Source: Candidatus Rokuibacteriota bacterium
Lineage (GTDB): Bacteria; Methylomirabilota; Methylomirabilia; Rokubacteriales; CSP1-6
Reading direction: 5' to 3'
Assembly (NCBI GenBank): GCA_003220265.1
Contig: QHRW01000118.1
Location: 23,186-87,185, forward strand
Length of the DNA stretch: 64,000 bases
Under the pieces are notes generated by a model. That model ran no database searches. It had not been told where the DNA came from and was given only the letters and a program-made list of their open reading frames with translations. The position numbers and the translations under genes are program-made. This document shows positions 39,853-46,452 of this stretch, piece by piece (the first letter of the stretch is position 1; every line of letters starts with the position of its first letter).

Positions 39853-41103
39853 CTACCGTCCCACGATCTCGCGCACCTTCTGGACGAGGGCGTCCACGGT
39901 GAAGGGCTTGTGCAGGAAGCCGCGGCCGGGATTCAGGCCGCGGTAGTCCTCCACGCTGTCCTCGAAGTCGCCCGAGAGATAGAGCACGCGGGCGGAGGCG
40001 CGGTACGGGCCGAGCCGCTGCAGCACGCCGTCGCCGGCCACGCCGGGCAGCAAGAGGTCCGCGATCACCAGGTCGATGGGACCCTGATGGCCGGTGCTGG
40101 CGGCCAGCGCCTCGTCGAGGTCGCGCGCGCTCAGCACGTGGTAGCCATGCAGCTCGAGGATCTCGGCGATCAGGTCGCGCACGCCGGGCTCCGGCTCCAG
40201 CACGAGGACGGTCGCCGCGGCGACCGGTGTCGCCACCGGCGGCTCGTCGCCGGCGTCGTGGCGGGGCAGGTACACGGTGAACGTGGAGCCCTGGCCAACC
40301 TCGCTCGCCGCCTCCACGTGGCCGCCGCTCTGGCTGACGAACGCGAAGACCGTGGCCAGCCCGAGGCCGGTGCCGCGGCCGGGCGCCTTGGTGGTGAAGT
40401 ACGGCTCGAAGGCGCGCGACAGCGTGGCGTCGTCCATGCCGCAGCCGGTGTCGGTGATCCGCACCATCACCGCGCGGAGGGCGCCGGTGGGGCCCTGCTC
40501 GAGGTCCACGTTGCCGGTCTCGATGGTGACGCGGCCGCCCGAGGGCATCGCGTCCCGCGCGTTGAGCAGCAAGTTCATCAGCGTCTGCTCGACCTGGCCC
40601 ATGTTCACGCGCACGCGGCCCAGCCGCGGGTCCAGGTCGAGCGCGACCTGGATCTGGTCGCCGAGCAGGGGCGCCAGCGTCCGCACGACGCCGCCGATGA
40701 CCGCGTTGATGTCGAGCGACATCGGCACCGGCGCGGCGGCGCGGCTCGTCGTCAGCATGTGCTGGGTCAGGTTGAGGCCCCACACCGCCGCCTTGCGAAT
40801 CGACTCGGCGCCCGTCCGCAGCGGATCGGTCGGATCCATGCGCTTGAGCATCAGCTCGCTGTAGCCGGTGATGACGGCCAGGATGTTGCTGAAGTCGTGG
40901 GCCACGCCGCCGGCCAGCCGCCCCACCGCCTCCAGGCGTCGCGCCTCGCGCAGCTCGTCGTCGAGGCGCCGGGCGCGCTCGCGCTCCTGCTCGAGTTCGG
41001 CGCCGAGACGCTCGACCTCGGCCAGCGCCTCCGACAGCGTCGCCTGACGCTTCATCGGCGAGGGTCCTCCGGACGAGCGGACGTCACCTAAGGTCGTCGC
41101 CAT
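39853..41103 (-). CDS. Cytoplasmic hybrid histidine kinase with C-terminal receiver
   Basis: Short coiled coil, H-box GVAHDFSNIL, NARDAM, YFTTK, GTGLGL, receiver IADLLLP. Start is ATG 41103 or 41055. Confidence 0.88.
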   Translation of the reverse strand: MATTLGDVRSSGGPSPMKRQATLSEALAEVERLGAELEQERERARRLDDELREARRLEAVGRLAGGVAHDFSNILAVITGYSELMLKRMDPTDPLRTGAESIRKAAVWGLNLTQHMLTTSRAAAPVPMSLDINAVIGGVVRTLAPLLGDQIQVALDLDPRLGRVRVNMGQVEQTLMNLLLNARDAMPSGGRVTIETGNVDLEQGPTGALRAVMVRITDTGCGMDDATLSRAFEPYFTTKAPGRGTGLGLATVFAFVSQSGGHVEAASEVGQGSTFTVYLPRHDAGDEPPVATPVAAATVLVLEPEPGVRDLIAEILELHGYHVLSARDLDEALAASTGHQGPIDLVIADLLLPGVAGDGVLQRLGPYRASARVLYLSGDFEDSVEDYRGLNPGRGFLHKPFTVDALVQKVREIVGR

Positions 41104-43003
41104 GCATCCCCGCTTCGGCGGGCGGATCCGGGAAGAGCGGGAGCTCGATCCGGAAGGTGGTGCCGCCGCCGGCGATGCTCCGGAAATCGATGCTGCCGCC
41201 GTGGTCCTCGACGATCTTGTGCGTGAGCGCGAGGCCGAGCCCGGTGCCACCGTCCTTGGTGCTGAAGAACGGATTGAAGACGCGGTCGGCATCGCCGGCG
41301 CTGATGCCAACCCCGCTGTCCTCGATCTCGACGCGCACGCGGCGAGCCCCCGTCGTGCGCGGGTGCCCGGGCAGCACGACGCCGGGATCGGCCCAGCCCG
41401 CGCGGACCGTGAGCCGGCCGCCCGAGGGCATGGCGTCGAGCGCGTTGCGGATGAGATTGACCACGGCCTGGTAGAGCGCGTCGGGGTCCGCCCACACCGT
41501 CGGCAGATCGCGCGCGTACTCGCGCACGACGCGGACGCCGGAGGACTCCATCTCGTGCGCGTACAGCTCGATGCCGCGCTCCAGCGTGGCGGGCAGCCGC
41601 ACGGGGGCGAAGGTCAGGCGGGCCGGCCGCGACAGCTCCAGCAGCCGCTCGACGATGCCGTTGATGCGCTCGAGCTCCCGCGGCACCACGGACTGGAACT
41701 TGGCGCGGAACTGCTCGTCGTCGAAGCGCCGCGTGAGGTGGCGGCTGAACGTCAGCAGCGACGTGAGCGGATTCTTGATCTCGTGCGCGAGGCCGGCGGC
41801 CAGGCTGCCGAGGGCGGCCAGCCGGTCGGAGCGGCGCAACCGCTGCTCGAGCTCACGGACCACCGTGATGTCGCGCATGGCGGCAATCACGCCGAGGTCC
41901 TTGCCGTCGCCACCCTTCAGCGGCACCGTGCTGATCTCGATCGGCAGCGTGCGGCCGTTGCGGCGGCGCAGCGTGGTCGTCACGCCCGGCGAGGCGGCAC
42001 GGCTGGCGATCGCTTCCATGAGGATCTCGCCGAGAGCGGGCGTCTCGGCGAAGACTTCCGTGCAGTAGCGCCCGGCCGTCTCGCCGGCGAAGAATCCCGT
42101 CATCATCTCGGCGGCGGGGTTCAGCGTCACCACGCGACCGTCGAGGTCGACGGTGACGATGCCTGTCGTCAGCGAGGCCAGGATGTTGTCCGTGTAGCTC
42201 TTGAGGTCCGCCAGCTCCTCCAGCCGCTGCCGGAGCTCGGCGTTGGCGTCCTCGAGCGCGCCGCGCTGCTGGCGGAGCTGGGCAGCCATGTGGTTGAAGG
42301 CGACGGCCAGCCGGCCGATCTCGTCGTCGGTGACCGGGTCGATGCGCAGGTCGAGCTCGCCGCGCGAGATCGCGGCGGCGCCCTCGGCCACGCTCTGGAC
42401 GGGCCGCGAGATGCGCCGCGCCACGATGGCCGCGGCCAGGCCGCCGACGATGAGCGTGGCCACCGTCAGCACGCCGAGCTCCCAGCGGGTCCGCCGGATC
42501 AACGCCTCCATGCGCTGCTTGGAGAGCCCCACGCGCACGGTGCCCCACTTGCGTCCCTGCACGATGATGGGCGCCGCGAAGTCGTACAGCGCCCGGCCGG
42601 ACTTGGTCGTGGTCTCCTGGATGAGCGGCTCGATGGTCTCGGCCGCTCGGCGGTCGACCGCGCTCGGCAGCATCTGGCCGATGCGCTCGACCCGCGCGCT
42701 CTCGGCGATGACCCGGCCGTCGGCGTCGAGGATGATCGCGTAATGCACGTCCTGCTCGATGGCCAGGCGCGCCACGTTCTGCTCGAGCGCGGTGAAGTTG
42801 TAGAGGAGCAGGTGGCTCTGCGAGATGGCCGCCAGGTCCTTGGCCAGCACCTGGCCGCGGCGCTCCGTCTCGTCGACGACGGCCGTCCGCTGCCGCTGCT
42901 CGACCACGACCAGCACGGAAACCATCACGAGGGAGATGACCGGCACCGTGCCCCACAACAACCGGGCCTGGAGAGAGCGCGGGCGAAGGCCGGCGAAGAT
43001 CAC
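41084..43003 (-). CDS. Membrane sensor histidine kinase (periplasmic Cache-like, HAMP, PAS, HisKA, HATPase)
   Basis: From GTG 43003: two TM helices, DEIGRLAVAFNHM, GIVTVDLDG, LAHEIKNPL, FFSTK, GTGLGL. Confidence 0.92.
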   Translation of the reverse strand: MIFAGLRPRSLQARLLWGTVPVISLVMVSVLVVVEQRQRTAVVDETERRGQVLAKDLAAISQSHLLLYNFTALEQNVARLAIEQDVHYAIILDADGRVIAESARVERIGQMLPSAVDRRAAETIEPLIQETTTKSGRALYDFAAPIIVQGRKWGTVRVGLSKQRMEALIRRTRWELGVLTVATLIVGGLAAAIVARRISRPVQSVAEGAAAISRGELDLRIDPVTDDEIGRLAVAFNHMAAQLRQQRGALEDANAELRQRLEELADLKSYTDNILASLTTGIVTVDLDGRVVTLNPAAEMMTGFFAGETAGRYCTEVFAETPALGEILMEAIASRAASPGVTTTLRRRNGRTLPIEISTVPLKGGDGKDLGVIAAMRDITVVRELEQRLRRSDRLAALGSLAAGLAHEIKNPLTSLLTFSRHLTRRFDDEQFRAKFQSVVPRELERINGIVERLLELSRPARLTFAPVRLPATLERGIELYAHEMESSGVRVVREYARDLPTVWADPDALYQAVVNLIRNALDAMPSGGRLTVRAGWADPGVVLPGHPRTTGARRVRVEIEDSGVGISAGDADRVFNPFFSTKDGGTGLGLALTHKIVEDHGGSIDFRSIAGGGTTFRIELPLFPDPPAEAGMHGDDLR

Positions 43004-43005
43004 GG

Positions 43006-44940: not shown

Positions 44941-45024
44941 TGGCGCCAGGCCGGCGTGGACGACAACGCGTTGGTTTTCTGCGTGTTTCGGCCGATTGGC
45001 CAACTGCGGTGCAGCGGTGGCCCG

Positions 45025-46452
45025 TTACTGGGCGCTGCCGCCGCGTAGATCACGCGCGCGAATCTTCCAGCGGGCGAGCTTGGCCTTGAGCGAGTTGCGG
45101 TGGATGCCGAGCAGACGTGCCGCCTCGCTGACGTTGCCTTCGACGCGATCGAGCATGCGCACGACGATCTGGCGCTCGAAGCGGTCGCTCGCCTCGTTGA
45201 GCGGCATCGCGTCGTGCGCCTCGGCCCTGGAGGCGCCCACGGAGAGCTCGAGCGGCAGGTCGTCGAGCCCGATGGTGCCGGCGTCCACCAGCACCACGGC
45301 GCGCTCGATCACGTTCTGCAGCTCGCGCACGTTGCCGGGCCAGTGGTACGCGCACAGCGCGTCGAGCGCCTCCGCGGTGGGCGTCTCGATGTGCTTGCGA
45401 AACTCGTGGTTGTAGCGGTGGATGAAGTGGCCGACCAGCAGCGGGATGTCCTCGCGCCGTTCGCGCAGCGGCGGCACCGCGAGGTGCACGACGTTCAGCC
45501 GGTAGTAGAGGTCGTCGCGGAAGGTGCCCGCGCTCACCGCTTCCGTGAGATCGACGTTGGTGGCCGCGATGATGCGCACGTCGATCTTGATGGCCCGGCC
45601 GGCACCCACCCGCTCGATCTCGCGCTCCTGGAGCACGCGCAGCAGCTTGGCCTGCAGCTCGGGCCTGAGCGTGGCGATCTCGTCGAGGAAGAGCGTGCCG
45701 CCCTGGGCCAGCTCGAACTTGCCGAGCTTGCGCTGGAAGGCGCCGGTGAAGGCGCCCTTCTCGTGGCCGAAGAGCTCGGACTCCATCAGCGTCTCGGCGA
45801 TGGCGGCCGGGTTCACCGCCACGAACGGCTTGTCGCGCCGCGGGCTCTGGCGGTGGATGGCGCGGGCGATCAGCTCCTTGCCGGTGCCGCTCTCGCCGGT
45901 GATCAGCACGGTGGTCGGCGTACGGGCCACGTGCGTCACCAGCCGGTAGAGCTTCTGCATCTCGAGGTGCTGCCCCACGATCTCGTCGAAGTCGTGGCGG
46001 CGCTCGAGCTCCGCGCGCAGGTAGACCACCTCGCGCTCGAGCGAGCGCCGCTCGAGCGCGCGGCGCACGAGCGAGAGCAGCTCGTCCTCCTCGAAGGGCT
46101 TGGTCAGGTAGTCGAAGGCGCCGAGCTTCATGGCGGCCACCGCCGTGCGCACGGTCTTCACCGCGGTGACGAGGATCACCTCCACCGCCTCGTCGATGGC
46201 CTTGATGCGCTCCAGCACCTCGATGCCGTCCATGCCGGGCAGGCGGATGTCGAGCAGGACCAGGTCCACCTGCGAGGAGCGCAGCACGTCGAGCGCCGCG
46301 CCGCCGTCGGGGACGTCGACGACCTCGTACTCGTCGTCGAGGATGAGCCGAAAGGACTCGCGCAGGCCGGGCTCGTCGTCGACCACGAGGATGACGGGGC
46401 GGAGCGCCCGGGAGCCGTCCCCCGGATCGATCGGCCGCACCTGCGCTGCCAT
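45025..46452 (-). CDS. sigma54-dependent response regulator (NtrC/AtoC family)
   Basis: Receiver (VVDDE, LLDIRLP), [28 protein letters not shown] and a C-terminal Fis-type HTH. Confidence 0.95.

Follow-up and report, generated by a model that had tools for sequence, protein, structure and literature searches.

A sensory cassette of Methylomirabilota headed by a conserved gene for a small, predicted exported peptide

Background

In the comCDE, agrBDCA and bacteriocin-induction systems of Gram-positive bacteria, the peptide gene is located directly before the sensor genes in an auto-induced operon. Arsenite sensing by the AioX-AioS-AioR system of Agrobacterium and other bacteria combines a binding protein used only for signalling, an sCache-like kinase, and an NtrC-type sigma-54 activator (PMC8050422). 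Proteins of the SBP_bac_5 family (family 5) act as co-receptors of membrane sensors in the CBP-ChiS pair of Vibrio, the DppA-Tap pair of Escherichia coli, and the AibA-TlpB pair of Helicobacter (PMC8050422). MgrB of enterobacteria, a 47-residue protein whose N terminus bears a hydrophobic segment, is induced by a two-component system and acts back on the periplasmic side of PhoQ (PMC2789325, PMC8404706). Bufferins exemplify precursors of peptides that are synthesized on ribosomes and modified after translation (RiPPs) that carry Sec signal peptides (PMC11626156). In the present work, we analyze a locus in a 64-kb window of contig QHRW01000118.1 from a Candidatus Rokuibacteriota bacterium, the window being the whole stretch of DNA considered. 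The locus encodes, in this order, a sigma-54 activator, a 45-residue pre-peptide, a family-5 binding protein, an sCache sensor kinase, and a soluble hybrid kinase.

A sequence-only reading of the window had interpreted this locus as a quorum-sensing-like circuit of peptide autoinduction. The genes and regulatory sites it listed were all recovered where it had placed them by Pfam searches, translation, and inspection of intergenic sequence. Comparison of related loci revealed that the peptide gene is conserved and is linked to the activator, binding-protein, and kinase genes. In the interpretation that we favor, and hold with about even confidence, a Sec-exported peptide of ~22 residues acts in the periplasm on a complex of the binding protein and the kinase, providing autocrine feedback and not quorum sensing.

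Conservation of the cassette and of the peptide gene

The locus was surveyed in one genome per species with an alignment of binding-protein orthologues as the query. The 80 loci obtained (designated L001 and so on) are nearly all labelled Rokuibacteriota or Methylomirabilota, and the few other labels may be binning errors. An open reading frame (ORF) of the peptide family is located directly upstream of the orthologous binding-protein gene in 71 of the 72 loci for which upstream DNA is available, a count that takes in a divergent lower-GC clade. L065 alone departs from this, with a transposase-like ORF abutting its binding-protein gene. The sequence-only reading had held that its proposal would fall if homologous loci lacked the small ORF; they carry it. 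In ~70 loci, the peptide operon is directly preceded by an orthologue of the activator gene, and the outgroup locus L080, whose binding protein is 40% identical, is without the peptide, the kinase, and the activator.

In the clade of the window, the flanks of the locus are syntenic, with genes for Lon, SLT, isochorismatase, and ComM on one side and Liv genes on the other. The distant members L167, L169, and L172 keep the four-gene core alone, without the hybrid kinase, amid quite different neighbours. Thus, the core of the cassette consists of the activator, the peptide, the family-5 binding protein, and the sCache kinase, and moves as a unit across Methylomirabilota. The hybrid kinase, with orthologues in about half of the loci, is a lineage-specific add-on outside this core.

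The 45-codon ORF at the head of the operon is a genuine and conserved gene, and its product has the signal-peptide character that had been noticed in the sequence. A search of 5.8 billion proteins identified 453 clusters of its homologues; nearly all of these either are 43-46 residues long or represent the same ORF called with an over-extended N terminus. In a full HMMER pass over 1.8 billion cluster representatives (at 50% identity), a profile built from 71 sequences found only 80, so the family is narrow and lineage-specific. A scan of viral contigs and a tblastn search of phage sequences yielded no member of it. Neither Pfam nor NCBIfam contains a family for the peptide, and public records name it only as a hypothetical protein. 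In every locus examined, the ORF starts with ATG behind a strong Shine-Dalgarno (SD) sequence.

The predicted signal peptides have the canonical succession of n-, h-, and c-regions. The n-region is M-x-K, the hydrophobic run covers ~15 residues and the hydrophobic span 18 (22 in one clade), and the c-region is P-V-I-E-S with the Pro at position -5. Of 86 sequences, 80% conform to the (-3,-1) cleavage rule directly after E+1. The divergent clade conforms to it two residues ahead of the Glu, which brings the combined coverage to ~89%. Beyond the signal region, the peptides comprise (i) a Ser/Thr/Gly-rich linker with insertions and deletions, (ii) a conserved core, h-F-x-A-h-G-x-A-(D/E)-G-G (h, hydrophobic residue), and (iii) a variable end. 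In the alignment of 71 species sequences, residues M1, P19, E22, G36, and A38 are invariant, and K3, L15, S28, F32, A34, and G41 are conserved in at least 90% of sequences. The peptide of the divergent lower-GC clade reads MKKxxVLxLVVLGLLAIxPAMEIDSSTQVFSRVGMAESGGGD. The family was also inspected for the defining residues or enzymes of lasso peptides, lipoproteins, prepilin-type proteins, and PqqA-like and mycofactocin-like precursors; these were absent, and the respective interpretations were rejected.

Conservation is distributed along the peptide in the reverse of the expected manner. The sequence-only reading had anticipated a conserved signal peptide followed by a variable tail, whereas over 38 complete loci the signal region averages 53% pairwise identity and the tail 78%. 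The corresponding values are 66% for the mature binding protein, 63% for the sCache domain of the kinase, and 77% for the receiver domain of the activator; no other extracytoplasmic part is as conserved as the tail. The tail has a ratio of nonsynonymous to synonymous variation (pN/pS) of 0.32 and the signal region one of 0.61, and synonymous sites in the gene vary freely.

Promoter and leader region

The intergenic region upstream of the peptide gene contains a sigma-54 element with the canonical GG/GC spacing. All 73 upstream regions scanned contain the pattern TGG[CT]-N8-TGC, 74-132 nucleotides ahead of the ATG of the peptide gene, and the element is present in four further divergent loci. 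The palindrome TGCACAGCTACTGTGCA occurs once in the 64-kb window, with 0.07 occurrences expected by chance. About half of the upstream regions of related loci contain sites of the form TGCAC-N7-GTGCA, often as two copies ~20 bp apart, and the block TGCACCGCAGTTGGCCA is kept in the 10 closest loci. By its spacing, the GAFTGA motif of the neighbouring activator, and the upstream palindrome, the predicted promoter has the features of the sigma-54 class that acts with an enhancer-binding protein. Given the universal conservation of this promoter before the peptide gene and beside that of the activator, it is reasonable to propose a loop that regulates itself.

A hairpin with a (C)AUGG(G) loop is located 23-35 nucleotides before the ATG in most of the 65 loci scanned, by our reading of the output. 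Its inner stem is CCCUC/GAGGG, and its outer stem shows many compensatory changes across loci. An Rfam search of the leader and hairpin matched no family; the hairpin could be a protein-binding or stability element. In the window leader (44775-44830, minus strand), a C-rich segment CUUCCCC is able to pair with the ribosome-binding site. The predicted fold was not distinguishable from those of shuffled sequences (z -1.55), and this pairing was set aside as a possible translational switch at most.

Four metatranscriptomes (soil, sediment, and plant-associated) contained contigs 85-90% identical to the window that run unbroken from the peptide ORF through the start of the binding-protein gene, and none of them extends upstream of ~44850. 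These RNA contigs from relatives are consistent with co-transcription of the two genes from the sigma-54 promoter. They end at 44799-44805; we did not accept this position as a transcript start, because the ends fall inside the conserved hairpin, where assemblies break.

Organization of the locus in the window

All features of the cassette lie on one strand (Table 1). The 253 nucleotides between the activator stop codon and the peptide ORF hold the palindrome, the sigma-54 element, and a ribosome-binding site, GGGGAGG, 3 nucleotides ahead of the ATG. The genes that follow are tightly packed: a start-codon scan placed the binding-protein gene 20 nucleotides after the peptide ORF, and in the window the two kinase genes overlap by 20 nucleotides. 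Between the binding-protein and kinase genes, there is a gap of 2 nucleotides in the window and either a 2-nucleotide gap or a 4-nucleotide overlap among the loci.

Table 1. Features of the cassette in the 64-kb window
Feature	Position	Strand	Basis
Activator, NtrC/AtoC-type response regulator (REC, Sigma54_activat, HTH_8)	45025-46452	minus	Pfam
Possible distal activator site TGCACCGCAGTTGGCCA, imperfect	44997..45013	minus	sequence
Perfect palindrome TGCACAGCTACTGTGCA (TGCACAG-cta-CTGTGCA), likely enhancer (upstream activating sequence, UAS) for the activator	44924-44940	minus	
Sigma-54 promoter TGGCGA-N5-TTGCT (-24 TGGC, -12 TTGCT)	44835-44850	minus	
Hairpin in the 5' untranslated region, GGAGCCCTC-ATGGA-GAGGGACTCC	44794-44817	minus	conserved
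45-residue pre-peptide: predicted Sec signal peptide MTKIFAAVLLLASFLLALPVIES followed by mature peptide of ~22 residues GTSGSTQLFQAIGTADGGAGGE	44634-44771	minus	
Family-5 (DppA-like) periplasmic binding protein, SBP_bac_5, with signal peptide	43006-44613	minus	Pfam, E 1e-87
Sensor kinase (sCache_3_2, HAMP, PAS, HisKA, HATPase)	41084-43003	minus	Pfam
Hybrid kinase (HisKA, HATPase, REC), soluble	39853-41103	minus	Pfam; hydropathy shows no transmembrane segment

Several rearrangements of the locus were observed in other species. In L001 (6785-7213), and also in L002-L004, a 142-residue ORF with no Pfam match lies between the ComM and activator genes. In the window, these two genes are only ~100 nucleotides apart, and the ORF of its close relatives is missing. 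In one species (L050), a PemK/MazF toxin gene (L050:3798-4169) is inserted between the activator and peptide genes, and two tandem family-5 binding-protein genes (L050:4939-8213) lie between the peptide and kinase genes.

Binding protein, kinases and activator

The closest solved structures of the binding protein are binders of peptides, dipeptides, glutathione/haem, and autoinducer-2 (AI-2), namely 8upi, DppA (1dpp), HbpA, and AibA; the pheromone binder PrgZ (4faj) is found further down the list. Residue D437 of the binding protein aligns with Asp408 of DppA, the anchor of the alpha-amino group of the ligand, and is invariant in 67 of 67 orthologues. Residue R388 aligns with Arg355 of DppA, the clamp of the dipeptide carboxylate, at a position that varies among D, R, G, and A. 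Together, the conserved anchor and the variable clamp are compatible with a ligand that would have a free amino terminus and would not be a simple dipeptide, such as a longer peptide or another amine.

The sole transporter genes near the cassette form a convergent Liv-type set (BPD_transp_2, ABC_tran) on the opposite strand, which in relatives comes with its own Peripla_BP_6 binding protein. No permease or ATPase of the Dpp or Opp type was found in the window locus or in four other genomic contexts. Since the adjacent transporter genes are Liv-type and not Dpp/Opp-type, the binding protein is locally an orphan, in agreement with the sequence-only reading, which had described an orphan binding protein encoded next to a kinase. 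The kinase has, by hydropathy, a transmembrane segment at residues 13-37, a periplasmic sCache domain at 38-173 (~135 residues), and a second transmembrane segment at 174-199. Adjacency of a binding-protein gene and a gene for a kinase with a periplasmic sensor domain is also seen in the class of AioXSR, LuxPQ, TorTS, and CBP-ChiS.

The best NCBIfam matches of the kinase and the activator are AtoS and AtoC, respectively, both below the family cut-off. The AAA+ domain of the activator matches Sigma54_activat with an E-value of 5e-72 in Pfam, and its GAFTGA motif was seen in the translation. In L169 and L172, the kinase is shorter (~500 residues; sCache-HAMP-HisKA-HATPase) and lacks the PAS domain, and no hybrid kinase gene follows it.

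Possible functions of the peptide

In the periplasmic feedback that we favor, the AtoC/NtrC-type activator would bind the palindromic enhancer and fire the sigma-54 promoter. The resulting transcript would encode the pre-peptide, the transporter-less DppA-like binding protein, the sCache kinase, and, in the lineage of the window, the soluble hybrid kinase. The pre-peptide would be exported by the Sec pathway and cut, most likely after the conserved P-x-x-E-S junction, and the peptide of ~22 residues (...STQ-h-F-x-A-h-G-x-A-D/E-G-G...) would stay in the periplasm as a ligand or modulator of the binding-protein/kinase complex. The kinase would in turn set the phosphorylation of the activator, so that the operon would feed back on itself. 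We infer the cleavage of the peptide, the pairing of the kinase with the activator, and the sign of the feedback. The autoinduction loop of the sequence-only reading is retained in part: its wiring is plausible given the sigma-54 promoter conserved beside the activator gene, whereas the intercellular signalling is not supported by a nearly invariant tail and a locus without an exporter.

Several results weigh against the periplasmic feedback. Co-variation was tested by matching the state of peptide position 37 (T or N) against all columns of the binding protein and of the kinase. The T37N change arose several times, in several clades. The best scores in this low-power test were 0.53 for the binding protein and 0.65 for the kinase, versus 0.64 for the cytoplasmic activator that served as the control. 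The co-variation of the tail with the binding protein, for which the sequence-only reading had suggested a test, was therefore no stronger than in this control. In L007, L027, L010, and L076, the peptide ORF is in frame with the binding-protein gene across one or two stop codons. AlphaFold2 modelling of such a natural read-through fusion gave pLDDT (predicted local distance difference test) values of 21-23 for the tail and a poorly modelled N-lobe of the binding protein; as a weak test, it lends a contact no support and carries no weight as a negative. The contact of the peptide with the binding protein or the kinase is something that we infer, and the term quorum-sensing-like was the weakest part of the sequence-only reading because the proposed capture of the peptide by the binding protein has the same standing. 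Cleavage of the peptide is predicted by rule only, and AlphaFold2 shows the peptide alone as one long helix with a tail pLDDT of 76; an uncleaved membrane anchor may be an alternative state. Finally, tandem peptide copies and YcaO-TfuA neighbours, considered next, accord with a secreted product no less than with a partner in feedback.

Pairs of YcaO and TfuA form backbone thioamides in RiPPs and in McrA (PMC8120280, PMC5589413), and YcaO enzymes also modify large proteins (PMC5589413, PMC13063428). In L013 (3479-5970), Pfam identified YcaO and TfuA genes between the activator gene and the peptide promoter; in L018 (2551-5039), tblastn located such a pair just upstream of the activator gene. 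These two loci belong to distant clades of the kinase-plus-activator tree. A metagenome scan with the L013 YcaO returned 21 close homologues with 73-84% identity (L085-L104, L110), and all 17 with enough flanking DNA adjoin the cassette. Three arrangements were observed: (i) YcaO-TfuA-activator-peptide, (ii) activator-YcaO-TfuA-peptide, and (iii) YcaO-TfuA adjoining ComM, beyond it. YcaO homologues that are more distant lack this module. Thioamidation of the peptide may occur in a minority of lineages, judging from this gene context; shared ancestry of a syntenic neighbourhood is the other explanation of the adjacency. In L165 (8001-8553), a Methylomirabilia-like long contig, three tandem copies of the peptide gene, ~210 nucleotides apart, precede the binding-protein gene. 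The broken binding-protein and activator frames of this contig were not taken as pseudogenes, because it has many frameshifts of the kind typical of long-read assemblies, which are probably assembly errors. Together, the YcaO-TfuA genes and the tandem copies suggest that the peptide itself is a product whose quantity matters.

These observations bear directly on the possibility, which we consider rather unlikely, that the system has the peptide as its output. In that case, the sensor would detect an external ligand, such as environmental peptides or amino compounds, and switch on an exported peptide with a function of its own, for example, metal-binding, antimicrobial, or envelope-active, or RiPP-like with YcaO-TfuA thioamidation in the minority of lineages. 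Apart from the tandem copies and the consistent adjacency of YcaO and TfuA of the Rokubacterial type, this possibility accords with the peptide being the only non-regulatory product of the operon, with a binding protein that evolves faster than the peptide tail, with the co-variation result, and with the precedent of the bufferin precursors. However, in ~90 loci the peptide gene always accompanied the binding-protein/kinase pair, YcaO and TfuA are absent from the 64-kb window and from 70 of the 72 species loci, the peptide has no Cys, His, or recognisable bioactive motif, and neither immunity nor export genes were found at the locus.

Quorum sensing in the strict sense is still less probable and, in our estimate, improbable overall. 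The peptide would leave the cell, accumulate with cell density, and re-enter the periplasm of neighbours, where the binding protein would signal through the kinase to the operon in a positive feedback. The gene order mirrors that of the Gram-positive peptide-kinase-regulator cassettes such as comCDE and agrBDCA, the binding protein shares its family with PrgZ and retains the Asp that anchors an amino terminus, and the strong ribosome-binding site, together with tandem amplification in one lineage, suggests high output. Nevertheless, we prefer the periplasmic loop for three reasons. First, the tail is almost invariant across the phylum, showing no diversification of pherotypes. Second, the flanks of four independent genomic contexts contain no exporter, outer-membrane or TolC-like channel, TonB-dependent receptor, or re-uptake gene. 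Third, at ~2 kDa, the peptide exceeds the usual porin limit of E. coli-type outer membranes, and the host phylum is presumably two-membraned, as in Methylomirabilis. The co-variation result also counts against quorum sensing.

It is scarcely credible that translation of the ORF alone matters, coupling or attenuating the downstream genes with a functionless product: the ORF does open the operon at its 5' end, preceded by a very strong ribosome-binding site and a hairpin that is conserved, but amino-acid conservation is strongest in its C-terminal tail, some residues are invariant across classes, and its synonymous sites are free.

Peptide autoinduction proper in a double-membraned phylum, with a processed Sec-exported peptide captured by an orphan DppA-like protein that would gate an sCache kinase and a sigma-54 activator, is on the whole unlikely. 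If true, it would yield more peptide and more sensor, in an architecture unlike those of RRNPP, Agr, and LuxPQ, with a peptide that would be thioamidated in some lineages. The cassette bears on the question of whether ribosomal peptides serve double-membraned bacteria as signals in the periplasm or between cells, and its occasional YcaO-TfuA neighbours raise the possibility of a Sec-exported thioamidated peptide. Comprising four genes and one promoter, it offers a transferable handle on sensing by an abundant uncultured soil phylum.

Comparison with known systems

The cassette was not found described in the literature searched. Binding-protein-dependent signalling and feedback of small proteins on kinases are each known; their phylum-wide union under one self-driven promoter was not found there.

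With thioamidated RiPPs and bufferins, the resemblance lies in the YcaO-TfuA genes beside the peptide gene in a minority of related lineages and in the Sec signal peptides of bufferin precursors. The window has no such genes, the peptide has no Cys, and its thioamide is only conjectured.

The Gram-positive cassettes share with the present one the order of peptide and sensor genes, beside a regulator gene and under an auto-regulated promoter. Their own features are a double-glycine leader with an ABC/C39 exporter, or AgrB, a polytopic kinase, the absence of a binding protein, hypervariable peptides, and sigma-70 promoters; the cassette shows none of these. It has a Sec-type leader, no Cys, no AgrB, C39, or other processing genes, and a tail that is far from hypervariable. 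Likewise, neither a tetratricopeptide repeat (TPR) protein, the receptor of RRNPP systems, nor an Opp permease was found in the locus or in the relatives examined.

MgrB stays in the membrane, needs Cys, is encoded apart from phoPQ, and has no binding-protein partner. The cassette peptide, in contrast, has a predicted signal-peptidase site, and its gene heads the sensor operon.

The CBP-ChiS, DppA-Tap, and AibA-TlpB pairs use a family-5 co-receptor, and AibA and DppA are among the closest structures of the cassette binding protein. However, their binding proteins are encoded in ABC transport operons or serve chemoreceptors, and they respond to external ligands (chitobiose, dipeptides, and AI-2) and not to a self-encoded peptide.

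AioXSR resembles the cassette in that a binding protein is encoded beside an sCache kinase, together with a sigma-54 activator, in both. It differs in that (i) AioX is an arsenite binder of the phosphonate type and not a family-5 protein, (ii) no small peptide gene is present, and (iii) the operon under its sigma-54 promoter is a separate target, aioBA, and not the sensor operon. The cassette is genuine and conserved and represents an uncharacterised, probable variant of two-component sensing that depends on a binding protein, with a dedicated peptide, predicted to be exported, at its head.

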